Source: Schmidtea polychroa (taxonomy: Eukaryota). From it: a DNA stretch of 64,000 nucleotides. Positions 9,265-59,094 of this stretch are shown piece after piece. The notes under the pieces were generated by a model, which did no database searches, had not been told where the DNA came from, and worked only from the letters and a program-made list of their open reading frames with translations. Position numbers and translations under genes: made by a program. Numbering within the stretch: the stretch's first letter is position 1; the number at the start of each line of letters is the position of its first letter. Where the stretch lies: contig CM097885.1 in the NCBI GenBank assembly GCA_044892525.1, positions 39,184,001 to 39,248,000 on the forward strand. The letters run 5' to 3'.

Positions 9265-9305
9265 ATTAAGGGTCACTAAAACCAATTGTAAATAAACCAT
9301 AATGA

Positions 9306-9965
9306 ATGTATAATAGTATCATGCGAGGCGAGATGATGATAACAATGACGGTATTGATGATTCTGACGGAGAACAAACAAGTAAACGCCCAACCGAAAAT
9401 CGTGCGAGATTACCGAAATCAAAATCAAGAACCTAAACGAGAATCCGGCCAATGCACATACCCTATGACAGTAAAAATCCATATCATCCAAACCCTTCAA
9501 TCAACCCGTTCACACATCAACAACATCCAAACAATGTGTAAAAAGAATCCCATTTGTAAAATGATAAACAAACAAATCCTCGAACAAATCCAACAATTCG
9601 ACCAGCTAGAACAACAAATGCAACAAGAGAATTTTGAAAATCTTGTAGAAAAGCCAAAAACACCTCCCGAAATCAATGACACCCATTATCTCATATATGT
9701 GGTGATCGCAGAAACCCTCCTCCTATGTCTACCAATACTCATGAAGATTTACGAAGTTAGAAATAAATGTAGAACCCCGACAGCAATAAGAGTAACCTCG
9801 AACAGAAATCCTCAAGAAGTGCCACTGACAAATCTTAACCCAACCCCATTCCGACCTCGAATCCCGAGTAACCAACCAATCCAGCCGAATTCTTACAGTC
9901 AGACCTATCTCAACATCAATACCCAAACCAACCAACAACCGCCGGCAGAAGCATCAAATGGTTAA
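9306..9965 (+). CDS. Small predicted type I membrane cargo protein
   Basis: Hydrophobic N-terminus MMITMTVLMILTENKQVNAQ, short helical ectodomain with two Cys, TM-like YLIYVVIAETLLLCLPILM, and a Pro/Asn/Gln-rich tail. Confidence 0.7.
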   Translation: MYNSIMRGEMMITMTVLMILTENKQVNAQPKIVRDYRNQNQEPKRESGQCTYPMTVKIHIIQTLQSTRSHINNIQTMCKKNPICKMINKQILEQIQQFDQLEQQMQQENFENLVEKPKTPPEINDTHYLIYVVIAETLLLCLPILMKIYEVRNKCRTPTAIRVTSNRNPQEVPLTNLNPTPFRPRIPSNQPIQPNSYSQTYLNINTQTNQQPPAEASNG

Positions 9966-10583
9966 CAGTTCATAAACTCTAACTCAAACATTGGTGATAT
10001 CATATGTAGAAACTTTTATTGTATATACAAACTATCACCTTAAGTGATACTTGCTTGGTCTTGATTTGACCTATATCTTAGAATAAAATTGTTTTATTAT
10101 TGTAATATAATTGTTTCGATATATCCTTTTTATGAATGCATGAAGTAAGATAACTATGCAATTGCGGGACGCAATTTTGATGGGTCCCCGAGTGATTTGT
10201 TGGGCTGAATCGAAGGGTAGTTGAGAAATTAGGGCAAACTTAACTAAAATAAAATAAAAAATAAAAACAAATAAATTGACAAACAAAATAGAATAAAACA
10301 TAAGAAAAACAATAATTAGAAAATAGGAATTAAAACAAAAAATATAAAGATGAGAAAAAATTAAAATAGGACAATAGAATGGCGGAAAACAACGTAAAAT
10401 ATAGTAAATAATAAGAAAATTAAGGAAAATAAATAAAAACATAATTTTAATAAAGAAAGTAAGAAGAAATAACTCAAAAACAAGGAAAATAAATTAAATT
10501 AATAAAATTAAGCGGTACTCAATTCTAATTGGTCCGCGCAAACAAAAAATTAATATATAAGCAGGCATTAAAAACATAACAAT

Positions 10584-10659
10584 TACTGTTAATCAACCAC
10601 CTCAATAGGTAAGCGAAATTTAAACAAAAATACTGTTAATCAACCACCTCAATAGGTAA
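10584..10659 (+). repeat. 29-bp direct repeat pair in the LTR (U3 enhancer-like)
   Basis: TACTGTTAATCAACCACCTCAATAGGTAA at 10584 and 10631; also present in the second LTR copy. Confidence 0.8.
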
Positions 10660-12633
10660 ATCTATTCTACGACAGAACAGAACTCCAGCAACTAACGCAC
10701 GATAACTCACGAGGACAATCCCAAGATTCAAGAGATTTTTACAGAACTAGACGATATTCGAGCATTAACTGATTCGACATAGTACCCTTTTCGACTCAGC
10801 CCATACTTGTATCAATCATTCAGTAAGGATTTTTGATTGCTTATTTTGAATTTTTAAGTAATGCGTATAGTTTAATAATATTTTTAATTTAAAAAATGGT
10901 TTTTCTTTTCGTTTGATTTTCGAATGCTTTACTTAAATTAATAATTTGCTTAATAATAAATGATTTGCTCGTTAAGAATTATTGATCTTTTATGAATTAA
11001 TTTGTATGAATTATTGGAGACTATTCAATTTTGCGAGAAACGTGGCGTTGAGATACTCTATGTCATGGTGTGAGGTGCCTTCGGGAGCTCCACCGGTGGA
11101 CATAGGGTATTTCAATCACGCAGCTAGATTGGGCCGAAATGTGAGGGCTTCTTCACGGGTCCAATTGCTGAAGGTGCGACTAAAAGCTATAGGTAAATGG
11201 TGGCAGAAAATTGATAGTCATGTAGTGATTGAAAACAAAGATATATAATAAAGGAATCGGAGAGTTTGGATGTATTCGCGCAGTGATTGAGGGTGTCGCA
11301 CTATCGTCTTCAAATATCGTTTTTGCTAAACCTAAAAATCTCTCTATCATCAATGTAGGTTGTGCGTCAAAAATTGTTCAAACCTTAATGAGGCTATCTG
11401 TGACATATCTTTGATGTTCATACCTTTCACTCAGAATCTGTTCCGACCAATTTTAGCCTATGACCTTTTGAACTATTATTCCGTTCACCTAAAAGTTCTC
11501 TTAAAGACATCGTTGCAAGGAAGCTCAAAGTAGATTGCTTCAGATAATTATTGGAATTATTCCAAATGACTGTTTACGGATAAATTGTAGAACTACGTAA
11601 AATAATTTATTATAGATAATTGTTAGAACTTCATAAAACGAGTTTGTTCCAATTAAAATTTTGAATTACATAAAATAATTTACTTCAATTAATTTTTTTT
11701 TGAATTATATAAAAATATTTACCTATAATCAATTATCATAATTACACGAACTATTGGCATCAAATAATTTAAAATGAAAAATGCAACCAATTCGAACCAA
11801 GAAAATATATTTCTTCAAGTTAACCGATAATCTTGTTAAATACAAAATTCCAGTATTACATGAGGTTGGCAATCCAGCAGAGATAGGAAAAAATCCTCCA
11901 GCACTTAGAGAGTAGATTGATAAACTAGGCTTGAGGAATTAGAGACGAAAAATCCACCCTTGGAGCAAGCAGTATCCAACATTTGCAATATAGATAATTT
12001 TAATTTTTCCAATAATCCGGTGAGAATTAGTAAATCATCACCATATGCCGTAGAATTGTGAGCGAATACGCGGTGGATAAAATTCTGAGAGAATGCCATC
12101 ATGCAAACATTCAACGCCTGCATTGGTAGTATAATTAAGCGGGTGAAAGCGCACCTGGCATGCGTCACCAGTTGCAGACTTACCTAATAGCCAAGTACAG
12201 TAGACAAAGTCACACACGCATCTACTCATGAAAAATTAGATCGAACATGCCAATTAAACTACCGACAGCTATCAGATTTCACCGCTTCGGATTAAGAGTC
12301 AATCACTGGGCTGACATTACCTTATCTACCCAGCAGGTATGATCGACTACTAGCTCACACTGATACCGTGCTCAGTTGTTATAAAGACACTAACATTTAA
12401 TGATAAACTCGATCATAATTATGAGTATTCTCTCGTTATTATCTTAGCATGAATGGCACCGAAATTATTTCATTTTTTGACATAGTTATCATTAATATTA
12501 GTATCGAATATTGTTAAATAAATATTATGTAAACCAGGTAAAACACATACGTGAGTAATTAAAGAAAATGAATAAACAATTAAAAATTTAAATAACCTTC
12601 CGTTTATCCTGTAGGAACTAATCAACAGGCATT

Positions 12634-13757
12634 ATGGACCCCTTTTCCATAGATAGTCACTCGACCCCAATATATGATACACTCAGTAAAAGCACTCGTA
12701 CGGGGGGAGAAGTCGACAATTTAAATCGATTCTCGGTAAACGTGAAATAATGACTCCAAGCGGATTAAATAAATAATCAGTTTCATCGACATAGAATTTC
12801 TCTCACAAACAGTAATATCTTCCTTTTCCTTGTGCGAAATCTGGGTTGATTGATTTATCTTCTTATAATTAAAGCCCCGAAAGGGTACGAGAATCCATCG
12901 CGTAGTAGAACTTGTCCTGACTGGTAAACCCTTATTTTTGTCTATGATCAGTACAGTATGAATGTAGTCAGGTGGTGACGCTCCCGCTGATTTAATTATT
13001 TTCATTTTCTTTTTCACAGTCGCTCAAAATGTTGCCAAATTCCAAGCCCGTTCTTCGACCTTGTTTTTCTTGCTCCGACAAGAATTCAATTATCAAAGAG
13101 CTCCAGGCCCAAATTGGCAAGCACAAAAGAAGGATAGATGAGTTAGAGGGGACATGGTTTAGTCCCACCCAGATGAAGGAGGCTCAGAAGAAGCTGCACC
13201 GAAGCGAGCACTGTAGAGACGCGTTGATTTCCGAGAGTCGGGCGCAGAGGAGCCTGATAAAAGAGCAGTCGGAGGCGCTGCACAAATTGTACGTCCAGGC
13301 CGCAACTACAAGGAAGATCGCGAAGATCCCGATTAACGAAGCCAGTAACCTTTTCCCAGCACATCATGATATCTCTGGAAAGTCCTGCCATGGGTGCGTA
13401 GAGACCGAGCTCTCACCTAAAGGACCAGAAATCATCTTTACCGGAACCAGTAAAGTGCTACCTGCGATAGCATCCACCTCAGCAGCACCCTCGACCAACC
13501 AAACAGCATCGAAGCCAAAGCGTCGACAATTATCGAGAGCAGAACGAAAGAAAAAACAGCGGGAACGCATAACCGCCAAACAGAACCAGCAATCGTCGGA
13601 TCATCCAATCAAAGTCATCAACCCCCCTGCAGCAATCGATTTAGCACCAGTGATCTCAGGGCGAATCATCTCCGCCGCTGGTGTTACCTGGGAGGAAAAC
13701 GCCTCTGAGTTTTTCGATTTGGAAGATCTATTGGCAGACTCGGAGTGGGAGAAATGA
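12634..13757 (+). CDS. LTR-encoded spliced gene (exons 12634-12735 and 13020-13757; 279 aa): CxxC, coiled coil, basic NLS-like segment, acidic tail
   Basis: 34-codon exon MDPFSID...NRFS ends at a GT donor (12736). A polypyrimidine TTTTCATTTTCTTTTTCACAG acceptor at 13019 joins it in frame (SLK) to the 242-aa ORF. Contains KPKRRQLSRAERKKKQRER and ends FFDLEDLLADSEWEK. Confidence 0.72.
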
Positions 13758-13891
13758 GAACTTCCCCGTAAAAAGTCTTCGTTCTCTGAATTGACCTGAA
13801 CATTGTCTGATAACATTTTACCTTGTCTCTTTTCCCGTTGTCGTGAACTTTATTGTATAGGTGTTAGATATATTTGTGTGATAATCTTAAT

Positions 13892-13897
13892 AATAAA
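13892..13897 (+). promoter_or_regulatory. Candidate polyadenylation signal in the LTR
   Basis: AATAAA 135 nt after the LTR ORF stop, followed by a GT/T-rich tract. Confidence 0.5.
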
Positions 13898-16800
13898 CCA
13901 TTTTTGTCTGCATACGTTCTTTTTGTGTTCATCTTAAGACAGTTGAGTTGAAATTGGTAAATGGTATTGAGAGTCATAAAATTATGAGGAGCATTAGTCA
14001 GTTGGTAAACTCAGCTAGAAATATTGCGATGGGGCGACGGAATGAGTAGACGTAAGTCCTTCTATCGGCAGTCAGGGTTGGGAAGTCGAGGCCTCAGTAA
14101 GGAGTAGTCCGAAGGAGCTGGCTCACCTGCTTACTGGCGTCTCGCCGGCATAGCACAGTTCCAACGTGAAGCAATTCACGGGTGCTATGTTGGAGTGTAA
14201 GTTATGTACGGGTCCCGCTCGGCGATGACCAAATAAATGACGGGCGAAATCGAGGTGGGCATTCATCCTCTAGACTAAAGCTGCACTAGAAAGGGGTCAT
14301 CCGAGTAGTGTACCCGCAACAACTGTAAAAATAAAAATTGTGGAACGTTCTGTGCTGTTCCGGGCTTTATTTTATTCGTAGGATTAACCTTTGAATATTA
14401 TTACAAGCGCTAAATTTTTGGGCGATTATACTAAAAATGTTTGGGGTATTTATATTAGATTTTTAAGCCAGATGTTATTTTAAAATAAATTATATTAATT
14501 TCTAGTGTTAAGAATTGTATTTCAAGTATGATCTTAAGAACAAATTATATTATTTTACCTAAAGAAATATTATTTTATTTTTATTTTCAGTTAATTCAAG
14601 AATACTTGAATTATTCTGACTAAAATTTTTCAGCTGTTTATTTATTAAAGAAATTTTACCTTTAATTAAAATTTATTGTTATTAATTTAAAATATTAAAT
14701 TAAAAATTATTAAAATATTTTCCCTTGTATAAAATTATATTGTAATCATTTATTAAAAAGTTAACTAATAAAATACTCAGTCTATTAAATATATACACCC
14801 GATAAAATATACATCATTAATCAGACAGTATTATACATAAATAATCAGACAGAAATTAATCAGAATAATAATAAAGGATAAAATATGCACAGATTGTTAG
14901 CTATTTCGAGGATAATGTTTGATCAATAATATTTACACAAATTAAATCGTTCAAGAATAATGTTTTGTTGAATTAACTTGAATTGATTGGATTGTTTCTG
15001 GATTGAATTGGGTTGCATGGAATTGGGTTGTTGATTGTTGGGAAATTAGATTGTCTATTTATCTACGCTCTTCGGTGTATACATTGACTCGGTATCTCTT
15101 GGGCCCTGTCCTATAATACCGGTTGAGGTTAAATGTGGTGATGTGCCTACCTTCATCATCCAACATACTTAATCTCCTTGAGTAACTCTGAGTTGTTATT
15201 GTCGTTCCCGACCAATATAAAACAATCTTTCATCACTATTACAATATATTACAAAACTACAGTAAACTTTATTGTCAAGTCACTGAAACATTATATTAAT
15301 AATACAGGATACTAATAATCAAAGGAATAGAAATTAGAACCCGGAACTTTAATAATATAAATAAGTATTATTGTCGACAAAGGTTCAAATATGCACTCCT
15401 CATCTGAGGCATTCATAACATTTGCATAGTATATTACTTCACTTTTTGGTGGTACTTCTTTGACAGATTCGTGTTTCATTATAATTTGAAATGAATTTAA
15501 AGTTTCAGTGACAGACGAGACCCATTAACTATTGACTGACTCATTTAATTTGTCTGTTTTCAGAAATCTATATGAAATCTATTGATCCTGTTAGCTTCCA
15601 CTGGCGTCATGAGAATCGCGGCGGGTTGGTCGAGAGTTTGAGTGGTCTGTGACTTGACAGCTCTGTGGCAACTGCTTGTTTGTCAAGGATGTGAGATTTA
15701 GAGACTGAAGGTTTATCTGTTTGATAATCTTGTTTTAATTAATTGTCGGGGTATTTTGAAACTTTAATTGAAAGTTTTTTACAGAAATTAAAACAACATT
15801 TCGATTTTCCTGGGTGTTCTTTACTATTGCTAATTTAATTTGATTTAATTAACAAATTAGGAGTGATGACACTAAAGCTTTTAGGGAAATTTTGCAAGTA
15901 GTTGCTGATATATCAATGATAGGTTAATTTGGTGTTGCTTTTTACTTGTTTTACCCGATTGCAAATAAAGTTCAAGTTATTTCAAAAGGTAATGATAGAC
16001 AATATTTATGAGAATCATTGGCTGATGGGTCTAAAAGTTAAGTATAATAGTTATAAACCAATTGCTAGAGGTTCTTAAGTCATTTTAAACATAAAAGAAG
16101 ATCAAATTAAATATCTGAATGAAAAGATCCAATCATCAACCTAGAATTATATTCTATTGACTAAAAGTATGCAACAAAAGCATCGGAAAGTTCTCCATTG
16201 ATGCAAATAATAAAAGAGAAAATTTATTTTCTAACAAAATTACTAAACTTCATACAATTCAAATTGAAAGAAATTAACGATGTTAAGATTAAGTTTCACA
16301 ATGCAAAATAAAGAAATAACCAAATACCAGATGATGAAACTACAGTAACAAAAGAGAAGGAAAGTGAAGAAACCGAAAGTAAATCGAAACTTGAATATTT
16401 GGATGATGACGATAAAAATATAAAGATTAAAAGGAAAAGAAAAGATGCTGGTGTAGAAGAGTTAAATAAAAATAACCCGATTTAGACAATAATCCAAAAT
16501 CGAAAAATATTAATTAATTTAATTATGTTTAAAAAGCCAAGAAAAAGCCTATTATCATTAAGTTTTAAGAAAAAATCCTTCATTGAAATTATGATAAAAT
16601 TATGTATGTCGAAAATTCAAATTTTTGTGTCAATTTGAATTCTTCTGTAAATCTAATCATATTTCTTGACCAGCCATTTCAACCTTATACCAAACTTTCA
16701 ACAGCTTTAGTTCACCTGATTGTAAAATTAAGTTTTGTAATCAGAATTCAAAATCTTATTTAATGGAGAGTTAGGTGAATAGAGAAAAATAAGTACATGC

Positions 16801-23900: not shown

Positions 23901-25935
23901 TTAAATATCTGCCACCCCTCTGTGGATGACCTAATACGTTGAGTAATGTTCTTTCGGTTTGAGTTCCAATGCTTGGGAGTGGTTCCATATATTTCGGCAA
24001 TTTTTGTCTCTTCAAAAATGTAGGAGCCGCATCTCTGCCAGCATTTGCAGGGATAACTTCTCGAATCTCCACAGTATCATCAGCTAATTGTAGATTTTTN
24101 NNNNNNNNNNNNNNNNNNNNNNNNNNNNNNNNNNNNNNNNNNNNNNNNNNNNNNNNNNNNNNNNNNNNNNNNNNNNNNNNNNNNNNNNNNNNNNNNNNNN
24201 NNNNNNNNNNNNNNNNNNNNNNNNNNNNNNNNNNNNNNNNNNNNNNNNNNNAGATTTTGTGATTTAAGATATCAATGAATTTTTGTCGGAATGCTAACTA
24301 CCACATTATCCTAATCATATTTCGCGCAAAGGTTATCAAAGTAACCTTGATAAAAAACAGGAAACAAAGAGATCCGGTGCAATCTATGGTTTTAATTTAC
24401 AGTCCTATTTCCTTGTGCAATTCAATATTTTTGAAAAATTAATAACATTATCAAAATATCAACATTTGATTTTTCAAAGTTAACTCAGCTTTCACAAATC
24501 TGGCTTTCATTTTTTTATTGTTATTTCNNNNNNNNNNNNNNNNNNNNNNNNNNNNNNNNNNNNNNNNNNNNNNNNNNNNNNNNNNNNNNNNNNNNNNNNN
24601 NNNNNNNNNNNNNNNNNNNNNNNNNNNNNNNNNNNNNNNNNNNNNNNNNNNNNNNNNNNNNNNNNNNNNNNNNNNNNNNNNNNNNNNNNNNNNNNNNNNN
24701 NNNNNNNNNNNNNNNNNNNNNNNNNNNNNGTGTACAAGTAGTAGTGTTAGTATGATTATTATATGAAATTTTCTAACCTAGAAAATAATGAATAACCATT
24801 TCTCGTTTATCTCCATACAAATTGTCCGAATCATCCCAAAAACAGAAAAATCTTAGAACATGACGATCATGATCGAGAAACTGTTTCAATTTATCCTTTC
24901 TTTCATAAGGCCTAAGAGGCTGCATAGATTCATCCATTGCCTTTCGAGTTAAATTATAATTATCCTGTGGAATCTTTTCCGGTTGCCCTACCTTAAATAA
25001 TTAATTAANNNNNNNNNNNNNNNNNNNNNNNNNNNNNNNNNNNNNNNNNNNNNNNNNNNNNNNNNNNNNNNNNNNNNNNNNNNNNNNNNNNNNNNNNNNN
25101 NNNNNNNNNNNNNNNNNNNNNNNNNNNNNNNNNNNNNNNNNNNNNNNNNNNNNNNNNNNNNNNNNNNNNNNNNNNNNNNNNNNNNNNNNNNNNNNNNNNN
25201 NNNNNNNNNNNNNNNNNTTTTGAAATAAATGTTCATATTTTTACATGCACTCCAAGTTTTCTAAGAAAATTGTGAGTGAATTCATCACAACTGATGATTC
25301 GAAAAAGCTTTCCATAAAATTCTATTTCTATTCCGACATTTAAATCATGAACAGTGTAAAACAAATGGTCATTCGGTGCTGGTTTTGCTATTCTGTGACG
25401 ACGGATTATTGTTCCTGAACGTGGCATTAATTATCAAAAGTAACAAAGAATGATGGGCATTCACCTTGTGGCAAGCAACTATTACGTGTACGGGGCTCGA
25501 TCACTTGAATCGTGTCATCTTCAAGATAAAAGATAATTTTGCAATTTCTAATTCTAAACTGTTCTTCTCTTCTTTCATTCACGGATTCTTGAAAGTAAGC
25601 ATCGAAAAACAAGACCTAAATGTTTAGTAAAACCTAAATTAAAGAAACCAGCAATTTGTACTTGTTTATCAAATGCAATCCATGCTGGCATTTTACTTCC
25701 ATCTCCTGCTGGATATTTACTAGTTGGAGCACCAATTCTCTGTCCGGGCAGCGGAGCACCTCCAATGCCATTCTTGTCATCGCCAAACATGAAATTAACT
25801 TCATTCTTACTATCAAAATGATGAGATTTATGGTACTTTTCTTTTCCCAACTACAGTTAATTAAATAAATTTTTTCTTATAAAATTGACTTACATTTCTA
25901 TTAAAAATATTACCCGGTAAAAGAGGTAAAGCCAT
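19004..25935 (-). CDS. EFHC2: EF-hand domain-containing family member C2 (three DM10 domains plus EF-hand; ciliary microtubule inner protein), 12 exons
   Basis: Exons 25935-25894, 25850-25662, 25615-25465, 25414-25245, 24991-24778, 24083-23887, 23840-23702, 22263-21955, 21913-21717, 20689-20475, 19457-19245, 19196-19004 join in phase at GT-AG. Sequence MALPLLPGNIFNRN-LGKEKYHKSH...AWIAFDKQVLFFDAY...EDDTIQVIEP...FNGWGSEEDSLGNC matches EFHC2 as I recall it. Confidence 0.95.
20823..20898. repeat. (TA)n microsatellite in an EFHC2 intron
   Basis: Direct read. Confidence 0.95.
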
Positions 25936-32975: not shown

Positions 32976-35900
32976 TGTTGGGCTGAATCGAAGGGTAGTT
33001 GAGAAATTAGGGCAAACTTAACTAAAATAAAATAAAAAATAAAAACAAATAAATTGACAAACAAAATAGAATAAAACATAAGAAAAACAATAATTAGAAA
33101 ATAGGAATTAAAACAAAAAATATAAAGATGAGAAAAAATTAAAATAGGACAATAGAATGGCGGAAAACAACGTAAAATATAGTAAATAATAAGAAAATTA
33201 AGGAAAATAAATAAAAACATAATTTTAATAAAGAAAGTAAGAAGAAATAACTCAAAAACAAGGAAAATAAATTAAATTAATAAAATTAAGCGGTACTCAA
33301 TTCTAATTGGTCCGCGCAAACAAAAAATTAATATATAAGCAGGCATTAAAAACATAACAATTACTGTTAATCAACCACCTCAATAGGTAAGCGAAATTTA
33401 AACAAAAATACTGTTAATCAACCACCTCAATAGGTAAATCTATTCTACGACAGAACAGAACTCCAGCAACTAACGCACGATAACTCACGAGGACAATCCC
33501 AAGATTCAAGAGATTTTTACAGAACTAGACGATATTCGAGCATTATCTGATTCGACATAGTACCCTTTTCGACTCAGCCCATACTTGTATCAATCATTCA
33601 GTAAGGATTTTTGATTGCTTATTTTGAATTTTTAAGTAATGCGTATAGTTTAATAATATTTTTAATTTAAAAAATGGTTTTTCTTTTCGTTTGATTTTCG
33701 AATGCTTTACTTAAATTAATAATTTGCTTAATAATAAATGATTTGCTCGTTAAGAATTATTGATCTTTTATGAATTAATTTGTATGAATTATTGGAGACT
33801 ATTCAATTTTGCGAGAAACGTGGCGTTGAGATACTCTATGTCATGGTGTGAGGTGCCTTCGGGAGCTCCACCGGTGGACATAGGGTATTTCAATCACGCA
33901 GCTAGATTGGGCCGAAATGTGAGGGCTTCTTCACGGGTCCAATTGCTGAAGGTGCGACTAAAAGCTATAGGTAAATGGTGGCAGAAAATTGATAGTCATG
34001 TAGTGATTGAAAACAAAGATATATAATAAAGGAATCGGAGAGTTTGGATGTATTCGCGCAGTGATTGAGGGTGTCGCACTATCGTCTTCAAATATCGTTT
34101 TTGCTAAACCTAAAAATCTCTCTATCATCAATGTAGGTTGTGCGTCAAAAATTGTTCAAACCTTAATGAGGCTATCTGTGACATATCTTTGATGTTCATA
34201 CCTTTCACTCAGAATCTGTTCCGACCAATTTTAGCCTATGACCTTTTGAACTATTATTCCGTTCACCTAAAAGTTCTCTTAAAGACATCGTTGCAAGGAA
34301 GCTCAAAGTAGATTGCTTCAGATAATTATTGGAATTATTCCAAATGACTGTTTACGGATAAATTGTAGAACTACGTAAAATAATTTATTATAGATAATTG
34401 TTAGGACTTCATAAAACGAGTTTGTTCCAAATAAAATTTTGAATTACATAAAATAATTTACTTCAATTTTTTTTTGAATTATATAAAAATATTTACATAT
34501 AATTAATTATCATAATTACACGAACTATTGGCATCAAATAATTTAAAAATGAAAAATGCAACTAACTCGAGCCAAGAAAAATATATTTCTTCAAGTTAAC
34601 CGAGGATCTTTTTAATTAAATAAAAAATTCCAGTATTTCATGGGGCTGGCAATCCAGCAGGGACAGGTAGAAATCCTCCAGCACTTAGAGAGTAGCTCGA
34701 TAAACTATGTTTGAGGAATTAGAGACGAAAAATCCACCCTTGGAGCAAGCAGTATCCAACATTTGCAATATAGATAATTTTAATTTTTCCAATAATCCGG
34801 TGAGAATTAGTAAATCATCACCATATGCCGTAGAATTGTGAGCGAATACGCGGTGGATAAAATTCTGAGAGAATGCCATCATGCAAACATTCAACGCCTG
34901 CATTGGTAGTATAATTAAGCGGGTGAAAGCGCACCTGGCATGCGTCACCAGTTGCAGACTTACCTAATAGCCAAGTACAGTAGACAAAGTCACACACGCA
35001 TCTACTCATGAAAAATTAGATCGAACATGCCAATTAAACTACCGATAGCTATCAGATTTCACCGCTTCGGATTAAGAGTCAATCACTGGGCTGACATTAC
35101 CTTATCTACCCAGCAGGTATGATCGACTACTAGCTCACACTGATACCGTGCTCAGTTGTTATAAAGACACTAACATTTAAGGATAAACTCGATCATAATT
35201 ATGAGTATTCTCTCGTTATTATCTTAGCATGAATGGCACCGAAATTATTTCATTTTTTGACATAGTTATCATTAATATTAGTATCGAATATTGTTAAATA
35301 AATATTATGTAAACCAGGTAAAACACATACGTGAGTAATTAAAGAAAATGAATAAACAATTAAAAATTTAAATAACCTTCCGTTTATCCTGTAGGAACTA
35401 ATCAACAGGCATTATGGACCCCTTTTCCATAGATAGTCACTCGACCCCAATATATGATACACTCAGTAAAAGCACTCGTACGGGGGGAGAAGTCGACAAT
35501 TTAAATCGATTCTCGGTAAACGTGAAATAATGACTCCAAGCGGATTAAATAAATAATCAGTTTCATCGACATAGAATTTCTCTCACAAATAGTAATATCT
35601 TCCTTTTCCTTGTGCGAAATCTGGGTTGATTGATTTATCTTCTTATAATTAAAGCCCCGAAAGGGTACGAGAATCCATCGCGTAGTAGAACTTGTCCTGA
35701 CTGGTAAACCCTTATTTTTGTCTATGATCAGTACAGTATGAATGTAGTCAGGTGGTGACGCTCCCGCTGATTTAATTATTTTCATTTTCTTTTTCACAGT
35801 CGCTCAAAATGTTGCCAAATTCCAAGCCCGTTCTTCGACCTTGTTTTTCTTGCTCCGACAAGAATTCAATTATCAAAGAGCTCCAGGCCCAAATTGGCAA

Positions 35901-37122
35901 GCACAAAAGAAGGATAGATGAGTTAGAGGGGACATGGTTTAGTCCCACCCAGATGAAGGAGGCTCAGAAGAAGCTGCACCGAAGCGAGCACTGTAGAGAC
36001 GCGTTGATTTCCGAGAGTCGGGCGCAGAGGAGCCTGATAAAAGAGCAGTCGGAGGCGCTGCACAAATTGTACGTCCAGGCCGCAACTACAAGGAAGATCG
36101 CGAAGATCCCGATTAACGAAGCCAGTAACCTTTTCCCAGCACATCATGATATCTCTGGCGGGTCTTCTTCTCCAGTCGGAAAGTCCTGCCATGGGTGCGT
36201 AGAGACCGAGCTCTCACCTAAAGGACCAGAAATCATCTTTACCGGAACCAGTAAAGTGCTACCTGCGATAGCATCCACCTCAGCAGCACCCTCGACCAAC
36301 CAAACAGCATCGAAGCCAAAGCGTCGACAATTATCGAGAGCAGAACGAAAGAAAAAACAGCGGGAACGCATAACCGCCAAACAGAACCAGCAATCGTCGG
36401 ATCATCCAATCAAAGTCATCAACCCCCCTGCAGCAATCGATTTAGCACCAGTGATCTCAAGGCGAATCATCTCCGCCGCTGGTGTTACCTGGGAGGAAAA
36501 CGCCTCTGAGTTTTTCGATTTGGAAGATCTATTGGCAGACTCGGAGTGGGAGAAATGAGAACTTCCCCGTAAAAAGTCTTCGTTCTCTGAATTGACCTGA
36601 ACATTGTCTGATAACATTTTACCTTGTCTCTTTTCCCGTTGTCGTGAACTTTATTGTATAGGTGTTAGATATATTTGTGTGATAATCTTAATAATAAACC
36701 ATTTTTGTCTGCATACGTTCTTTTTGTGTTCATCTTAAGACAGTTGAGTTGAAATTGGTAAATGGTATTGAGAGTCATAAAATTATGAGGAGCATTAGTC
36801 AGTTGGTAAACTCAGCTAGAAATATTGCGATGGGGCGACGGAATGAGTAGACGTAAGTCCTTCTATCGGCAGTCAGGGTTGGGAAGTCGAGGCCTCAGTA
36901 AGGAGTAGTCCGAAGGAGCTGGCTCACCTGCTTACTGGCGTCTCGCCGGCATAGCACAGTTCCAACGTGAAGCAATTCACGGGTGCTATGTTGGAGTGTA
37001 AGTTATGTACGGGTCCCGCTCGGCGATGACCAAATAAATGACGGGCGAAATCGAGGTGGGCATTCATCCTCTAGACTAAAGCTGCACTAGAAAGGGGTCA
37101 TCCGAGTAGTGTACCCGCAACA
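32976..37122 (+). mobile_element. Solo LTR (4147 bp) of the giant Gypsy family
   Basis: TGTTGGG...CCCGCAACA with a perfect 4-bp TSD TACT (32972-32975 and 37123-37126); near-identical to 10198-14321. Confidence 0.93.
35414..36558 (+). CDS. Second copy of the LTR-encoded spliced gene (exons 35414-35515 and 35800-36558; 286 aa)
   Basis: Same splice sites and an intact frame; differs from copy 1 by an in-frame 21-bp indel (GSSSPVG) and G-to-R near the C-terminus. Confidence 0.72.
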
Positions 37123-46814: not shown

Positions 46815-47460
46815 TGTTGGGCTAGAACTGATTTCTAGACCCAAACTTATAATTGTGACTGAAATGTGTAGGTACACAACATGCAAAAAGCAAAAAGTAT
46901 AGCTAAATATTAAAATACACCAAATAAACAATAATGATTAAAAGGGAAACAACAAAAAAATAAACCCAGAAATTAAATAAAATTATACAAGAGCAAGAAG
47001 TTATGCAAAATCTAACTCAAAAATAACCAAATAAACAGAGTTACAAAAAACAAACTCGAATAACTTAAAAGACGGTAAAAACAGTAAAGAATTCCAGAAA
47101 AACCCAGAACATTCCATAAAAATGGCGATGACCATCATAAAAGCTACCTTAAACAATAAAATTTAGAAAAAAATAAATAAATTAGTAATAAAAATAAAAA
47201 AATCTTAAAAAGAAATTCATAAAACATCAGCTAAAATAAAAATAAAATTAAAATTAACATGGAATGTTCTGGAACCGTTCCAAATCCATCATAGACGTAA
47301 AATTAATGAAAATTAATTAGCAAATAAAAATTTAAAAATAAAAATAAAAATTATGGCACTAAAATTGCCATTAAAAATATCAAAATCGCGAAATAGAAAA
47401 TTCTGGAATAAAAAGAATTCGAGTTTGTTTTAATGCATCAATACATACACGTGTACAAAA
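46815..47460 (+). mobile_element. LTR remnant related to 59772-60179
   Basis: TGTTGGGCTAGAACTGATTTCTA(G/A)ACCCAA...GAAATGTGT..GTACACAAC is shared with the minus-strand copy starting at 60179; 3' end uncertain. Confidence 0.5.
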
Positions 47461-48849
47461 TAGGTATATATACCGACGCATTTTGGTCACAAGTTAATCT
47501 TTATGCAAATTTTTTTTTGTGTTATTGTTATTACTTTATTGGAAAATTTTGAAGTAAGAAATGTTCTTTTATTTTATGCATTTTTATCATGTTAACCGTA
47601 TTTTGGGTAGCTATTAAAACAATTATATTGAAAGTTCTTATATGTTAATCTTTATATGATTCTGATAAAGGAATTCCCCTTTGAATTTTTTTTTCTCAAG
47701 AGGGATCAACATTGATCGAATTTATCATCGATTTTGATCCGTCTCGCATAAAAATGGTTATCTCAACAACATCTACAACGTCATTGTGCACGCAGCCTTG
47801 ACGTATGCAGGCCACTGCCTGGCATGCACCTCAGTACTATAAAAGATGGGGTCGTCGGAGGTCGTACCGACTCAGTAGTATACGCCGCTGGATTCGTCGA
47901 TGAATCACCTCCGGGCGATGGAGTTCTCGGAACTCGTTATTTGTTATTATAATACGGTAGTATATTACCGATTACATTCACAATAGGGCTTGTCGTAGGG
48001 AGCACAGTGAGGCCCCGAAAGCAGGCAATGTTCTGTAAATTTGACTTTGTTTTCATGCATAAAGGACATATAACGTATACACTAAAAATCAACACGAATA
48101 CAGTACACTAGGTATGATAAACGGAGTAAAGCTCCAGACTCAATTAATTACACTGTCGAATACAAATTGTAGTTGGCTAACTCTAAACTTACCAAAGATG
48201 TCAATTTATGCATGGAACTTCCATTATGCCTATGCATTTTAGAGTGAAAATTGGAACTGAAACTAAGGTGGAAGGAGTCGCCAATGGTTATCAAGACAAT
48301 TTCAAGGTTCCGAAATAATGAAAAAATGATTACAAAAAGTACAAATGATGTAACCGAAAATTAGGTCAGAAGAAAACGATTGTAGCTTAGAGCCCTTCGA
48401 AATGCATATGCGTAATTCAGGAATCCACAATTCATTTAATCGACCAAAAAATCATATTGCCGATTTTAAAATTAATCAATTTCTAGTATTAAACCTTTTA
48501 GTAAATGATATATCGAATACTGATTCTAAAGAAGTTTTTCATTCAACTCTAAAATAATAGTTTGATATTTAACGTGATAGATGACAATTTATGTATAAAT
48601 TTTTTTTTTAAATTTTAGGTCTATTCGATGCGTAACATTTTTTCATAATTATATATAATAATTTTATATTTAACTTTTCTCATAATTCCACTTATTTCCA
48701 TACATTAGCCCATTATTATCGNNNNNNNNNNNNNNNNNNNNNNNNNNNNNNNNNNNNNNNNNNNNNNNNNNNNNNNNNNNNNNNNNNNNNNNNNNNNNNN
48801 NNNNNNNNNNNNNNNNNNNNNNNNNNNNNNNNNNNNNNNNNNNNNNNNN

Positions 48850-50547
48850 CGCGTTACAATATAGACAAAAAAAGTGATATAGTTTTGAAAATTATAAAGA
48901 TTTTAGGACTTAAAATACCTTAAGTTCTCAAAAATTCTATGTGTTTTAAAATTAAATTGCAAAATATGCAATTAAGATAATCGATTTCGAAGTATTACGT
49001 AATAACATGCTGTTACGCGCGTTACATCATTTGGACATAGGATTTTCTTGTGAGTTTTAAGGTGTGGTATTAAAAGTACCTTATGGACTTACATCATGAA
49101 CTGGATTTTTATGCTTAAAGGATGTTTAGATCATCTGAAAAACACCATGATATTTTCACAGTATCATCATCTTAGAAGAAAATGACGATTTTTTGTGTTA
49201 CGGGCGTTACACAGATTTTTTGTTACGCGCGTTACTTAAGGTTTGTGTACACATATAGTCCTCTAATTCATTCCATATTCAAGTTGTAGTACAATAATAA
49301 TGGGAAGTTACTAAGTTTCACAACATTCACAAAAGTCAAATAAGTGGATCAATGAGTTACACCCCCATTATCACAGTTCCAGAAATGATCCAGCATTATT
49401 TGTGGTACTTTTTTCGCATTTCCAAACACGGTGACTGCATCCACAAACGCTAGTGCATCTTGCATGGTCTCAGCAGTGGATAGTAGCACTTTCATACTAG
49501 AACGTGGCTGAGCCAATGCCCCAGAAAACTCTGCTGCATTTGTCACCGCATGTACACGTCGACTCAACACAGATCTCCAAACAATACGTTTCGCCATTCC
49601 CCCTGAAAAATTACAAGTCTGATCCATAAATTTGCTAGTTGACATATATATACTATATAGTCTTAACATTAACAAACAACTAACCTACGGCATCCACGGG
49701 TCCTTTATCGTGAGAAGTGGCAAAAAACGACCACGTCAATCTGTCTAGGTGAAATTGATTACGGAAATTCTCAAGCAATGCAAATGTAAATTTGTTTTCA
49801 TTTGTGATGATGGGCCATCACTTAGAATGTGGATTTCAACACACTGGCTGTGTTCAGACAAAAACTCTCGCATAACTTGAACAAAATTTGATGCAACAGT
49901 TGTCTTGTCGTGAACAAGACTGTCAGACACAACCACATATGAGCACGGCGTCGACTCTCCACTCCACAAACACGCTGTGAACACAGAAACGTGGCTCTGA
50001 AGCCAATGCGCTCCTTGTGTTTCGTCTTGGAACGCACAACCATAATTTTCGGCAAAATCAAATTGACAAATGACACGTTGAGGAGTCGCAGTTGACTTTA
50101 AATCATTGGCGTGCTTGTTCTGCCACCGTTTTGTGTAATGGTGTTTTAGAAATTGCGTCAAATTCAGAAGAAGGTCCTTGAAAATATTGTATTCGAATAA
50201 AAGCAAGTTCAGTTGATGATACCAACGCATTCATTCTTACTTCTAAGGCAGACCCCAGAGACTGTGTAACTTTCCTCTTCACCAACTGGCTGTGGTGCAA
50301 AATCTCATTTTCTCTTTTTTCCCAACGACATATTTCCACTTCCATCAAACTTTCATGTTCAGACAGTGCGATTTCTCTGAGACCGTTTCTCAAGCAACAT
50401 TTTTCGCATTCACCAAAGAAACACTCCTCACGTGAATCCGCGCACACTACCAAATCGGTCTATTTCTCTGAATATGGTGGTATGATCTCAGGAATCATGC
50501 AGGATATCGAGTTGACGGTACTGAAAGGTTAATTTATACCCAAGCTT

Positions 50548-50582
<35 letters not shown>

Positions 50583-51960
50583 TGCATTGTGCAATGTTCA
50601 CTTTACACATTACCTGATAAAGTTGTAATGCATTTGACAGACGCACACATTCTGTGGAGTATCCCCTACCACTAGCACATGTGATGGGCGCAATTTTGAA
50701 AACTTTGATTTTCCTATCTTCATTGCAGGATACTCTGTCAGAAACTGCTGGTATGCTTCTGTCAGTGTCATTGTCAGATACCTCTGAAATGTTTGTGTTA
50801 TAAGCACACGTATTCGTATGTTTCGTTTTTGGTCAATATATAACATTGCAATTAAAATAAATCTACCTTTGGTTTCTCCACCTTGGTTCCATCAGGATTT
50901 CTTACAGACACATAATCACGCTTCCCTGGGGCTTGGTATGATACATCATCCTTTATATAGAATGACTGAACACATTCCACAACAGTTTGGCTTATTACAT
51001 AGGAACCACGGGGATGCTTCTTAGGTTTCATCCCATATTCTGTCTGGATTCGGTGGAAGATGTGCGCACATTTCCTGGGTGAACCAGGAAGAGCTGTCTT
51101 CATTGAATGTAGAACCCTGAATCCATGACCATATGTATAATAATCAAATAACGTTTAATAAAGTTCCGATATTCTGCAAATAAATTAATATCGCATAATA
51201 CCTGTTAAACGCCCTAGTTTCGGAACTTTGTGAGCCATATGGAGAAGACATGTTTGTGCATGATGGCTCATCGTGAGCAATATTCTTTTTTCTTTGACGG
51301 TATGCCGCTACTCTTAACCGTGTCTGAAGCTTTATTTTATCCCTTTTAGCTTTCGGTTTTCGTCGAGAATGGTATTCTTTCTTGCGAGCATTCTACTTTT
51401 CTTTATATTCTGGGTGTCGTTCCCGGAACTCCTTTTGCCGTTGTGCATTGGTTTTCGCCATGATCTGAAATTAAATTCCATAAAGGTTCATTCATAATCA
51501 TTGAGTTAAAAAAACATCTTTGATGAAACTATAAACTATATCAGGCCTAAGTTTAAAATTATGATGTGTAAGTTTTATAAGATTAATACATAGTGTATAA
51601 CTGATAACTGATTCCTATTCTTCATCCTAGGTCTATCGCTTCTATAAAGCTATTAGGGTGTGCCACTTTAGGAAATTATTCACTTTAACTGTTTCATCTG
51701 ATATAGAGAGAAAATACGACAGTAACGCGCATAACGAAAGAGGTAACGCGCGTAACAATGAAAGTAACGGGCGTTACTAAATGTTTTTTGTTCATGACAG
51801 GTAAAATATAAAGATTTTACATTCAAGAACAGTATAAAACCGTTTATAAATAAACCGTTTCTATTTTGTAAAAGTTAGGGATGAATGGGGGTTACACATA
51901 CAATTATATGGAAATTATATAGTGTTTTTGTTATGCGCGTTACAAAATATTTACACACAT
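48850..51960 (-). mobile_element. Decayed DDE DNA transposon, Sola2-like
   Basis: Fragments KSKFSKLRP...CVCQMH, QFDFAENY...QDETQGAHW, SDGPSSQMK, FFATSHDKGPVDA...GGMAKR; subterminal GTAACGCGCGTAAC repeats at both ends; frameshifts and a (TA)n insertion. Superfamily assigned from memory of the motifs. Confidence 0.7.
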
Positions 51961-52588
51961 TTTAAAAGCAAATTACTTTCATTGCGTGCAAATAAAACAT
52001 ATAAACTGATAAAATAAATCATTAACAATGTATATATTTATTAAAAATATTAATTACAGTATCAAAAATGCACGATAAAGTATATTCAAACTTACGGAAA
52101 TAAAACGCAGTAATGATCATAAAAATATAAACAATTATTGCAACAAATTAAATTACACTTTATCATTAATGCCTTGAACGTTTGTCACAAAATTTCATAT
52201 TCATATTGTTTGATATATTACTTAATAGAAACAGTCAAAACATATTGTAAAATTAATAGAAATTTTTTCAGTCAGGCTGTCNNNNNNNNNNNNNNNNNNN
52301 NNNNNNNNNNNNNNNNNNNNNNNNNNNNNNNNNNNNNNNNNNNNNNNNNNNNNNNNNNNNNNNNNNNNNNNNNNNNNNNNNNNNNNNNNNNNNNNNNNNN
52401 NNNNNNNNNNNNNNNNNNNNNNNNNNNNNNNNNNNNNNNNNNNNNNNNNNNNNNNNNNNNNNTAATAAAACATGATTATACCGATCACCTACCCCATGAC
52501 TACCCGTCTATAACTATTCATAATAATATTATTTATATATATATATATATATATATATTACTTATAAATTTATAAATTAACCCTATAA

Positions 52589-52938
52589 TATCTTATATAC
52601 AATCCTTCATACTACTTATATATACTACTCATTAACCTGTATTTCGGATAAAAATTTATATCTTATATACAATCCTTCATACTACTTATATATACTACTC
52701 ATTAACCTGTATTTCGGATAAAAATTTATATCTTATATACAATCCTTCATACTACTTATATATACTACTCATTATCCTGTATTTCGGATAAAAATTTATA
52801 TCTTATATACAATCCTTCATACTACTTATATATACTACTCATTAACCTGTATTTCGGATAAAAATTTATATCTTATATACAATCCTTCATACTACTTATA
52901 CATACTATTCATTAACCGGTATTTCGGATAAAAATTTA
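52589..52938. repeat. Five tandem 70-bp units
   Basis: TATCTTATATACAATCCTTCATACTAC...GTATTTCGGATAAAAATTTA starts at 52589, 52659, 52729, 52799 and 52869. Confidence 0.92.
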
Positions 52939-54138
52939 TAATTTGTGATTTTATAAACAATCTATAATAATATTAGTGTATATATCATTCATAAAATTTA
53001 TTTTACGAATTCACCCTATAATATCCTATTTATAAATATTCGTCTTAATATTACTGAAATATACTATTTGTAAATATACACTTCTAAGGCATTATAAATT
53101 CCAATCACACCCCCATAATTTTTATAACAACTTATACACCTACACTTACATTTATACACTGATATATATACTACTTATAAAGGAGAATCATAAATTTCAT
53201 TCTGATAAATTACCCCCCCCCCTTCATATTCTCCCCTTACCTATATTACTATTTGAATGTATTATGAAAAAGGTACAATAAAAATTTCATAAATTGAAAA
53301 TCTGGGAAACCCCCCCCCCCTTTTTTTATTTATAATTCTATATATATCTATATCATATTATGTGCATATTACCTATAAATGACAATTTTAAAAAAACAAA
53401 ACCCCTTTATGATATGCTACATCGTTAGAATACAAAAACTATAAATTTCCAAGCTATAATTTTAGTTTATGAATATTTCTCACTTATTATAATTGTCTAT
53501 ATCTCTCACTAAAATAACAGATCAAATCATTAGGAAGATTTATTCATATCACATGGCGAAATAATTTGAGTTTGGATTGAGAATGCGTGGTTTTCCGTTC
53601 ACTGCCTGCGGGGTGGTCGTCTCCCCTTTGGGTGGCTTTAGGGAACTACAATGTGAATTGTAAGCACAGGTACTAAAGAAAATGGGCATTACCTTTTTGC
53701 TATTCCTCAGAAGGTCGAATACTCCTTTACCAGGTTTAGAGTTCCGATGTGAGTCGCTCGTAGGTTGACAGCCGTTGGCGTTTTCCGGCTGTGGTTTTCT
53801 TGGGTTGCTGGTTCTACAATTTATAAATTGACATTATTGCTTAGTTAAAATCTATTTTTAATTTAATTAATCAGATTGTTATATAAAATTAGTTTATAAA
53901 TCTTAAATTAATAAAATTTAAAATTGTTATATTTAAATCTCCATTTGAAACATTATAACAAACATAAATTAGAATAAATACATTAGGGAAGTTCCTTTCT
54001 TGAAGAATTATGGGAATATGATGGTGATTAGTATAGTCATTTAAATTTTTTTTTTCGACAAAGGTACGGAAACGCGTGAGGAGAAACTGGAAAATAATCA
54101 TATTTATTTGAAATGAAAAAAGAAAATATTTATTTAGA

Positions 54139-54510
54139 ATGTCGACATCCAGCAATCACAGCGAGGAGAACCTGTATGACGTGACGACCACACGCCTTCG
54201 CTCCAGACATATCTGGCACCACATCCACCGGTGGAGCCAGGGACGGGACCTAGATTGCACAAATCGAGTGATCCGGGAAGGCCCCTAGACAAACGCACCG
54301 GTATGGGTAAAGACCGAGCCGGACAACAATTGGCTCGTCGAGGCCAGAGACCGTACTATGGATGCAATCGCTAGAGCCCAGTGTGAACTCCGTTTGATCG
54401 AGGCTCAGCTCCGTGCGGTCGAAACTGGTCGGCCAATAGAAGAAATGGACGTGGAGCCGACGCCGGCGAAGAAACGGGGTCGACCCCGCAAGAAGGCTTT
54501 CCGAAACTGA
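54139..54510 (+). pseudogene. 123-codon ORF with a C-terminal AT-hook, interrupted by one in-frame stop
   Basis: ATG directly follows the acceptor-like TATTTAG-A; TAG at codon 50 (54286); ends AKKRGRPRKKAFRN*. Confidence 0.6.
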
Positions 54511-54856
54511 GATCTCGGTGGTCTCGGGGACGGTCTTACATTTAATTCTTTGACTTTAGTGATTTGACATGACTCCTTTGCTTAATAAACGTATTGTTTT
54601 CTTTATTTCGTTATGTCAATCTACATGTTATCATCTTAATAATTTACATTACGAAGTTATGCTAATCGAGACGTTATCATCTTGACTATCAACTCAACGG
54701 AAAATTTATGCTCACCCGTAGGACTTTAGTGTTTTATTCCACTTACATGGGCATAGTTCCTCGGATATGGGTACCCGAGCTTCGTTTCATAGGGATCGGC
54801 AATTATAAGGAGATAAAATTACGGTAAAAGTCGGTTGATTCTATATTTTAATTCAG

Positions 54857-55338
54857 TGTACCAACTGTTCGAATGACTCCGGAAGGACAGGGAGCAGGCG
54901 CAGCAGCAGGCCGAGCGGCTGCAACTTAGCGTCAATCAGTTCAAGGAACGCTGTCGGAAGATGGAGCAGACTTGGATTCGCCCTGAGGTGGCACACAAGT
55001 ACTTGAGACAGATTGAACAACTGCAGCTCCAGAGTACCCAAGACAAAACTGAAATACGAGCCCTAAAAATACAGATGCGGGCCATGGAAACAGAATTAAA
55101 TCAGCGGGCCATCGATGAGCACGTCACAGCAGCTATCCGGCCCATGACGATAGAACTGGCCGAAATGCACCCACTCAAGCCCAAGACCAAGCAAAAACGG
55201 CTAGGCCGAGATGGTCGTGAGCGACTCAAACGACTGAGGCTAGCAGAGCAAAGACTAGAAGAAGGGGCAAGAAAGTCAGTGCCACTTGACAGTTCATGTG
55301 CCGAACCAATGGATAGAAATAAAATTGTAGATAGTTGA
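54857..55338 (+). CDS. Coiled-coil ORF homologous to the LTR-encoded protein (related LTR family; 5' part degenerate)
   Basis: Acceptor TTTTAATTCAG at 54856. CTNCSND vs CFSCSDK; LQLSVNQFKERCRKMEQTWIRP vs LQAQIGKHKRRIDELEGTWFSP; KPKTKQKRLGRDGRERLKR vs KPKRRQLSRAERKKKQRER. Confidence 0.6.
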
Positions 55339-55820
55339 AGTTTAGTTCTTGTATGTTGAATGATGAAAATGAATGATGAGATGGGCATGGCGTTTTTGGG
55401 AAAACAATAGAAGTAGGGGACCAATGAAATCGGACACAAATCTTCTACCGATAGTCCGTGGACCCAAAGAGTGCTTGACAATTATAGTGCAAGTAGGCAC
55501 TCACCTTTTGCGAGTACTCACCCAGTTGACACAGTACCAACGGTGATCGCTCATCGGGTGTCAATTGGCGAAAGCAAGCTTGTATTCTGGGTTACGCTGG
55601 AAACAGCACGAAATGGTGAAATGTCTGACCACCTGTAACCCACCATTTGTCTATTTGCACTGATGAAGTTCTCACTAAGATGTATGATTTTACATCCCTT
55701 CCCAACCTCTAAACAGAAGCTTGGAGACAAAATCAACTGAATTTTAAATATTATTTGATCTAAAAAGTTGATTATCATTATTACAAGCTTAACGAAAACA
55801 ATAATAGCAATACATCCATT

Positions 55821-57801: not shown

Positions 57802-59094
57802 CAGGAATACCTCGAACAGTACGGTTAATCGGTTCTGGAATTTAGCCGTACTATTTGAAACCGGACTATTCGAGGCATTCTGGCGCTAATAAATTTACGG
57901 CTTAGTACCCCTATTAAGAAATTTAAAAATCGTGATTATAATCTAGTAAACAAAAAATATTTTGTTATGTATTTTTTTTCTGATATTCAAGAGCAAAACA
58001 ATCATATTTAACACAGTTGTACATTTAAATATATGTGAGACGATCTTTTTGAGATTTTATATCCCAGGCATGACTTCTCATTCACTGCTATGAAAGTGCG
58101 TGTTGCTAACTTTTTCCAGTATAACGCAGTCTCGTCTACATTGAATATTTGTTCGTCTTTGTAACCACCTTTTTCTATAATTCTGGATAATTCTTCTGGA
58201 TAGAATTTTAAAGCCGCCTCTTTATCTGCACTTGCAGATTCCCCACTTGCAAATACGTTGTGAATACCAGTTCGTTCCTTATACCGAGAAAACCACCCTC
58301 GACTGGCCGTAAAGGTTTCACCGGTTTCAGAACCAAGGTCTTCTACTTCATCCTCAGTCCCCAAGTCTTTGTAAAAATTTAGTGCCTTCGCTTGATTTTC
58401 CATTTGACTAATTGGAATACGTTTTTGGCTAAGGTGTTCTATCCATAAAGATAATAGTCGCTCTATGTTAACCATTCGAGAGCTTCCAATTTTCGTTACC
58501 ACTTTTGACAAACATGACGCCGTAGCTATACCTTGCGACTTGTATTGATCTTTCTTTTTCACAATTTTCCGAACTGACGCCTCGTTCATTCCCCTTTCTT
58601 TTCCTACTTTAGCAAACGAAGCCTCTTTGTCATGAAGTTTAATAACACTAAGCTTCTGTTTTAAAAGTGAGCCATTTGCATTTTATGGTTGTGGAGTCAC
58701 TTTTACACTTTGTTCTGCCACTCATTTTATTTTTAAAACTAAAATCTAAATATATAAAAGTCAACATACCTACAATTAAAAATATAAAACCAACAACTTT
58801 GATCTATTATCGCGCGATCGTGAATGTATCCATAGTGAATTTTTTTACGGTTTATTTATTCAATTTTTTATTGAAACTACAAACCAGAAATTAAACCTAA
58901 CAAAACAAATTATTAAACACGTGTCGTATGATTTTATAATAACGAATAAATTCTAAAAAATTAATTTTAAAAAACTTTTTTAAATTTCGAAAATATTATT
59001 AATTCATTTCAAAAACAATCATATTTTGAAAATTTCAAAATCGTACTATAGAGAAACCGTACTGATCGAAACCGTACTTTGCGAGGTATTCCTG
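57802..59094 (-). mobile_element. Tigger/pogo-type transposon, internally deleted
   Basis: TIRs CAGGAATACCTCG with TA TSDs; transposase remnant with HTH, FTASRGWFSRYKER and IFNVDETALYWK, truncated after the first D. Confidence 0.9.

Follow-up and report, generated by a model that had tools for sequence, protein, structure and literature searches.

Selected genes inside the long terminal repeats of five families of Burro-type elements in Schmidtea polychroa: possible nuclear regulators of the element's own RNA

On balance, the long terminal repeats (LTRs) of five families of Burro-type elements appear to carry genes of their own, which are kept by selection, are likely spliced from a promoter at the 5′ end of the LTR and likely encode nuclear regulators of the element's own RNA. 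Profile comparisons show that one of the products, a coiled-coil protein with a basic helix, is homologous across all five families (A to E), and the reading frames are under purifying selection. In planarian genomes, Burro elements make up a major component that is targeted by PIWI silencing. The window analyzed here is a stretch of 64,000 nucleotides (G000:C1:39184001-39248000) of a 781-Mb genome, and its features are listed in Table 1.

The elements and the family-B LTR

Two of the families are present in the window, A as one end of a 30.3-kb element and as a solo LTR, B as a solo LTR only. The two LTRs of the family-A element are 99.5% identical to each other, and its gag, CCHC, PF24664 fusion glycoprotein, RVP and RVT_1 domains are found within one 3013-aa frame, the fusion glycoprotein lying in frame between gag and protease. 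A full-length family-B element measures ~35.7 kb between and including LTRs that are ~98-99% identical; a scan for these domains other than RT found them there in broken frames. In both elements, gag, the PF24664 fusion glycoprotein, pol domains and a MATH cargo are present, and BIR and ankyrin domains were found in B. An identical 18-nt primer site, which we read as tRNA-Pro, follows the LTR in 28 of the 31 stretches checked. The design of A and B matches that of the published Burro/GYPSM1 elements (PMC6431247): more than 30 kb in all, LTRs of several kb, a single frame for gag, fusion glycoprotein, protease and RT, and a cargo of MATH/TRAF, BIR and ankyrin domains. Judging from their sequence, the elements are most probably Burro-type, env-bearing gypsy elements.

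Families C, D and E were found through distant matches in the flanks: C has ~52% identity to A in the core of the protein, and D and E have 31-44% identity to B. One open reading frame (ORF) is present in the LTRs of A and C, and two (ORF1 and ORF2) in those of B, D and E.

Other features were seen beside these elements. The internal accessory ORFs of element A stand in a row at 5363-9965 (RING/TRAF-MATH and two coiled coils, one with hydrophobic stretches), and four of five have an AG with an ATG close behind it. Between the two A LTRs, the minus strand holds exons (21618-25850) that belong to a DM10-domain host gene, presumably EFHC-like, and further downstream, at 58008-58682, also on the minus strand, lies a fragment of a Tc5/CENP-B-type transposase DNA-binding domain. 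Elsewhere in the genome (G000:C1:123080000-123100000), a B element has a 6-kb direct duplication, made of the 3′ half of the LTR and ~3 kb of internal sequence, and adjoins a family-C LTR.

Table 1. Features of the LTRs in the window (positions in the window; the slash marks a splice junction)
Feature	Position	Strand	Remarks
3′ LTR of the 30.3-kb family-A element	10198..14321	+	Single ORF: acceptor 13019, ATG 13029, stop 13757
Solo family-A LTR	32976..37122	+	Target duplication TACT; open copy of the family-A LTR ORF
Solo LTR of family B, TG...CA, ~5.1 kb without insert	46815..55645	+	4-bp target duplication TTTG on both sides
A-rich 5′ block, ~90% identical among B, D and E; putative U3	46815..47510	+	
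TATA-like box (possibly an alternative splice donor)	47464..47474	+	Surrounding 22-mer has 1108 exact genome matches
Conserved donor A/GTAAG, closing a short non-coding leader exon	47553..47560	+	0.74 kb into the LTR
Later insertion of ~3.7 kb with broken transposase-like frames, in the predicted intron	48722..52462	-	Ends approximate
70-bp tandem repeat in the LTR	52588..52940	.	Related copies have the same repeat
Acceptor AG and ORF1, 123 codons	54136..54510	+	IWxxIHxW motif, helix, C-terminal AT-hook-type motif 54469-54492
AATAAA downstream of ORF1, candidate poly(A) signal	54584..54589	+	Present too in LTR copy L104
Acceptor AG/TG (phase 1) and ORF2	54855..55338	+	Coiled coil, TWxxP hinge 54970-54984, coiled coil, basic helix
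AATAAA, candidate poly(A) signal of the LTR genes	55318..55323	+	~300-330 nt before the LTR end in B, D and E
Conserved, folded 3′ end of the LTR with compensatory base pairs	55385..55645	+	3′ of the candidate poly(A) signal

In the first-pass annotation, the family-B LTR was considered a relic of a giant-LTR family different from that of A. The difference was borne out. Blastn of the window against itself gave no DNA-level similarity to LTR A, as had also been noted. The word relic fits the window copy, with a stop in each ORF: ORF1 has an in-frame stop after 49 codons, and ORF2 is open over 54877-55338 with a stop in the frame just before 54877. It does not fit the family, which is abundant (2431 candidate places genome-wide, 40 of them scored) and includes the full-length elements with nearly identical LTRs. 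The insert in the window copy contains DFAENY and SDG motifs, and no Pfam match was obtained for the single frame scanned.

The LTR-encoded proteins

The first-pass annotation had proposed that the ORF2 product is a distant homolog of the LTR-A protein. At the level of profiles this stands (hhalign 93%, E 3.2e-7, 75 columns, after families C, D and E had been added as bridges), but it is not significant in pairwise blastp (E 15); the first profile test, with A and B alone, gave 76% and E 2.2e-5 over 32 columns. When a profile made only from B, D and E sequences was run on a set of 1342 ORFs, which included the elements' own long coiled coils, all 10 LTR ORFs of A and C (E 6e-9 to 4e-4) outranked the unrelated ones; the best non-family match had an E of 1. 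The resemblance is also better than that of shuffled coiled coils, since each of the 14 A/C members scored above 300 shuffles that preserve the heptads. In the reverse test, which is weak for the closest B copies, 12 of 15 members pass, the exceptions being three B copies for which 6, 14 and 1 of the 300 shuffles reach the real score.

The common core is a coiled coil broken by TWxxPxxM, a motif present in 21-29 of 30 loci in each of the five families. The LQ..K.R..E.TW..P stretch and the basic helix, both described earlier, are indeed found in the coiled-coil ORF. A CxxC motif had been thought to be shared as well, and here the description fails: CTNC at 54857 lies outside the coiled-coil frame in all 40 B loci. 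All 32 close B copies retain it and none of the eight diverged ones does, while the coiled-coil frame persists in these, and the CxxC of family B is therefore a shadow frame. A frameshift joining it to the coiled coil was rejected, as the offset is identical in all 40 loci, and CxxC is absent from the D and E ORF2. The A and C proteins, on their side, have a CxxC, a basic helix and an acidic-aromatic C-terminal tail, and their LTRs lack ORF1.

The structure model of ORF2 (pLDDT 84, pTM 0.37) consists of a helix (residues 2-39), a kink, a second helix (43-104) and a basic helix (118-146); an arginine/lysine-rich helix is present in the LTR ORF proteins. Leucine-rich export signals have a spacing of the LxxIxxLxL type. 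Such a spacing occurs in 29 of 30 loci in B and 22 of 30 in D, as against three in E and one each in A and C, although coiled coils match it easily. No relative with a known function was found for the LTR ORF proteins in Pfam, among PDB folds or in databases: a protein database search with the family alignments, restricted to near lengths, gave nothing at E<=1, Foldseek against the PDB gave no match for the ORF2 model, and a search of the structure Atlas with ORF2 returned only generic coiled coils. A library of 1.84 billion sequences yielded one match, P0001, a D-type protein on short ENA contigs and the sole one outside this genome.

The upstream ORF1 had been described as starting with MSTSSNHSEENLYD and ending in an AT-hook (KKRGRPRK). 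The start at 54139 and this end do belong to one frame, and both ORFs follow splice acceptors, as had been observed (AG at 54136-37 and 54855-56). ORF1 is open over its whole length in 20 of 40 family-B loci and lies upstream of ORF2 in 39/40 B, 19/25 D and 26/29 E rows. The echo of the first exon of LTR A that had been read into its start was not recovered, a YD-ending start occurring in only 5 of 40 B loci. Homology of ORF1 to LTR A is likewise not supported by its profile, which matches none of 40 A loci; none of 30 C loci was matched either, these extending only 1.5 kb upstream. The "exon 1" peptide of LTR A itself finds a match in only two of 15 diverged stretches of A, in one case with a stop, and gives no selection signal in a six-frame scan with low coverage at that place.

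AT-hook proteins have an HMGA-type role. The likeness of ORF1 to this class (PF02178) is the KRGRPRK core at its C-terminus; it differs in having just one hook, which scores less than the Pfam cut-off (first member 14.5 bits, cut-off 17.4), and is otherwise an unclassified helical protein with a poor structure model (pLDDT 63). PF02178 matches weakly in four of 11 members. The GRP core with basic flanks was counted in 22 (B), 11 (D) and 28 (E) of 30 loci each, and in none of 30 in A and C. A DNA-binding role of this motif would fit AT-rich DNA.

The first-pass statement that conservation at the protein level implies selection is supported by dN/dS values of ~0.07-0.14 in both ORFs. After removal of saturated or near-identical pairs, the median pairwise value is 0.07 (B, 7/10 pairs) and 0.14 (D, 18/36 pairs) for ORF2, 0.14 (7/10 pairs) and 0.13 (9/15 pairs) for ORF1 and 0.03 for the A/C core (A 4/21 pairs, C 17/21 pairs). 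In the six-frame scan, low dN/dS is confined to the A ORF and to ORF1 and ORF2 of B, apart from a few low windows elsewhere, which are poorly covered. Other GC-rich LTR frames were considered as genes and rejected, being without a selection signal. The LTR ORFs of A and B lie wholly inside the LTR, as in a gene of the MMTV sag type, and an LTR end was found downstream in 147 of the 150 top-scoring loci, so that the LTR-only context that had been proposed holds for these matches. A distant host homolog may exist beyond them.

Predicted splicing and the split start codon

An AG with an ATG no more than ~9 nt behind it is found at most of the accessory ORF starts that were examined, both in the interior of the elements and in the LTR. 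ORF2 is the exception: the acceptor AG stands in phase 1 in 93 of 94 rows and is followed by TG in 88 of 94, with no ATG nearby (100 loci were examined, six were without an N-terminal match and two rows are duplicate copies). At the other end of the LTR, a TATA-like box common to B, D and E is located at about +650. Of the 1108 exact matches to the 22-mer around the box, the first 100 supplied 70 LTRs for comparison. In 62 of these, a GTRAG donor follows the box by 76-93 nt, and five of the eight LTRs without it have A/GTAGGT. The base at -1 of the donor is A in 48 of 49 distinct LTR sequences, which, even if related copies are non-independent, span many distinct leader types; the neighboring bases are variable, and at control GTRAG sites A is found in five of 46. 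In family A, where the ORF has its own ATG, the -1 base is G in five and A in two of seven.

A donor fixed at A and an ORF2 exon fixed at TG are best explained by an ATG formed at the splice junction. The start codon of ORF2 is thus predicted to be created only by splicing, through a junction from 47553 to 54857, and it is very probable from these patterns that the LTR-borne genes are spliced. Three other sources of the start were rejected: a mini-intron of 24-33 nt before ORF2, which has in-frame stops and is not seen in D; trans-splicing of a spliced leader (an SL ending in AUG exists), which would open the shadow frame; and, for the LTR genes in general, a donor behind the primer-binding site (PBS), which is absent from both of two D leaders.

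Contigs of four runs aligned to a B LTR covered parts of the ORFs, and no GT..AG joint was found among the 15 joints listed out of 26. One presumed-RNA run covered mainly the first 0.5 kb and is not counted as evidence. Searches for genomic copies of the spliced ORF2 junction gave 0 and 0, versus 168 unspliced B/E matches; these zeros are uninformative, as they are expected if the spliced mRNAs lack the PBS.

Two further details of the leader region were noted. At 10584-10660, in LTR A, a 29-nt stretch ending in a donor is repeated 47 nt later, and such an intron-ending copy of the first exon is found, with a different sequence each time, in several diverged A copies. In the leader exon of the other group, a conserved TATGCCAA motif is found ~40-50 nt after the TATA-like box (~47500-47507 in the window; also in L243-L312). 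It contains an ATG whose frame relative to the donor is not constant, sits where the similarity between families ends, and may mark the end of R.

LTR layout and candidate roles of the products

The LTR proteins are probably nuclear self-regulators of the element; that ORF2 specifically is Rev-like is put forward tentatively. In the mechanism that we propose, the promoter would lie near the 5′ end of the LTR, and a short leader exon after the TATA box would be spliced to each ORF, its last A forming, for ORF2, the start codon with the first TG of the exon. These mRNAs would end at the AATAAA located 300-430 nt before the LTR end and would be the first, early products. If this layout is right, the full-length RNA has to bypass the splice sites as well as the internal poly(A) signal: it would stay unspliced over ~4.5 kb and read through the internal AATAAA. 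ORF2 would be an early, oligomeric, Rev/CERV-like protein that promotes this unspliced, read-through RNA and may do so by attaching to the folded end of the LTR. ORF1 would bind the AT-rich promoter block via its AT-hook and aid transcription. The role of ORF2 and of the LTR proteins is kept uncertain by the export-signal spacing, which is confined to B and D, and by the acidic tail of A and C, which favors an activator.

Such an activator (Tas/Tax-like) would be a coiled-coil/basic protein directed to the DNA of the LTR promoter, with ORF1 as an HMGA-like helper and no RNA export. The architecture of the A and C proteins, the AT-hook core in ORF1 and the A-rich promoter block all agree with it, but the acidic tail is absent from the ORF2 of B, D and E, no bZIP or bHLH match was found for the LTR ORF proteins, and the passage of the full-length RNA past the splice sites and the internal AATAAA is left unexplained. 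We consider it rather unlikely.

As far as +700, the B, D and E LTRs are 70-100% identical in each 50-nt bin; beyond this point they can mostly not be aligned, and at this breakpoint the AT skew falls from +0.4 to about -0.1; family A has a comparable break near +400-450, with one reciprocal mosaic. Where downstream identity is below 0.8, the 5′ block keeps an identity of ~90% in each of three bins (231 pairs, 22 of 30 loci), and B and E are 89-96% identical in their internal 3′ end. The post-PBS leaders, on the other hand, follow the ORF family, with identities of 0.81-0.96 within and 0.35-0.72 between families. As the ORFs travel with the post-PBS leader and the first 0.7 kb is common to the families, the ORFs would be part of the 5′ end of the RNA (R-U5), and the LTR genes likely lie in a giant U5. 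Blocks ~90% common to families with very different LTR genes further suggest that the first 0.7 kb (46815-47510; L223-L272) and the internal 3′ end were exchanged repeatedly between families at strand transfer. Against this layout, no canonical poly(A) signal was found just behind the inferred start site, and the boundary of R is for this reason not placed.

In the conventional layout, the genes would instead lie in a long U3, which is where MMTV sag lies, transcription would start near the 3′ end of the LTR, and the genes would be expressed from the 3′ LTR via a post-PBS donor or an internal U3 promoter. The AATAAA is conserved at 299-330 nt (B, D and E) or 424-437 nt (A) before the LTR end, inconsistently so in C, and is followed by the folded block, which could be R-U5; in this block, 12 of 53 pairs are changed on both sides, and the window copy alone gives a z of -2.1. 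B and E moreover have an A/GTRA site ~85-90 nt downstream of where the PBS begins. This site is, however, missing from both D leaders, neither the first 0.7 kb nor the internal 3′ end travels with the ORFs, and in the A group as in the B/D/E group the TATA-like box, the change of skew and the breakpoint between families fall at one place, which makes the long-U3 layout improbable.

With the genes placed in U5, the LTRs might, as a provisional picture, be self-contained gene cassettes made of a short U3 promoter and a 4-5 kb U5 with intron-bearing early genes (one start codon being built by splicing), whose products would switch the element from spliced to unspliced read-through RNA. Reverse transcription would require a strong-stop DNA of ~5 kb, families would exchange promoters at R, and the intact solo LTRs would all be dispersed regulator genes that act in trans.

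The LTR proteins could also counter host silencing (piRNA/H3K9me3) or target host pathways, with many LTRs, among them solo ones, supplying them in trans. SMEDWI-2 silences Burro elements (PMC8532177, partial text), the elements carry other host-directed domains and the ORFs exist in very many LTR copies. Against this, purifying selection is strong, pairwise dN/dS has no sign of an arms race and no likeness to known anti-silencing proteins was found; we regard this role as quite improbable. Finally, convergence of coiled coils with basic tails, the two ORFs being unrelated captured fragments, is very improbable and largely refuted: the non-significant blastp, the short first profile alignment and a common signal that rests largely on the TWxxPxxM hinge would allow it, but the heptad-shuffle and decoy tests, the bridging motif in D and E and the position of all ORFs at the same place, just before the LTR end, contradict it.

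Taken one by one, several components of this system have precedents: Burro elements have been described, MMTV sag is a gene encoded in an LTR, and both spliced export factors and split start codons are on record. Genes inside LTRs, a split start codon or the LTR layout are not described for Burro/GYPSM1 (PMC6431247, section 7). CERV, a novel protein of the C. elegans element Cer1, is produced from a spliced mRNA and needed for export of unspliced RNA (PMC10309623, partial text). It is alike in that an invertebrate gypsy element makes a novel protein from a spliced mRNA, splicing being predicted in our case, and differs in lying in the internal region at the env position; the database searches did not return CERV. 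MMTV sag, an LTR-encoded protein gene, specifies a type II membrane superantigen, and rem a Rev-like export factor from spliced RNA (PMC11998498, partial text), whereas the LTR ORF proteins here are charged and helical and apparently encoded downstream of the LTR promoter. In Drosophila endogenous retroviruses of the springer subclade, the env start codon is completed by splicing of the main env exon to an upstream AU (PMC12992720, partial text); here, the predicted split is A/TG, the gene is not env and both exons would be inside the LTR. Conserved additional ORFs of plant LTR retrotransposons, proposed as nuclear regulators akin to retroviral accessory factors (PMC7264820, partial text), differ by their place in the internal region, often in antisense, and not in the LTR. 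As no sequence or fold homology to Rev/Rem/CERV-type factors was found in the LTR ORF proteins, these would at most work like such factors, without being members of the group.

No description of genes inside Burro LTRs was found in the search listings and partial texts covered, although the original Burro paper and its supplements may mention LTR ORFs: the available part of PMC11410931 mentions Burro once, with nothing on LTR genes, and a word search of PMC13524379 gave none of the five terms sought. The control of a 30-kb Burro RNA with many splice acceptors is unexplained in these partial texts, and the conserved LTR genes are now named candidates for it. If the placement in U5 is true, reverse transcription must copy an unusually long first segment, and solo LTRs, usually seen as inert or as promoters only, would be whole protein-coding genes, each family of them present hundreds to thousands of times.
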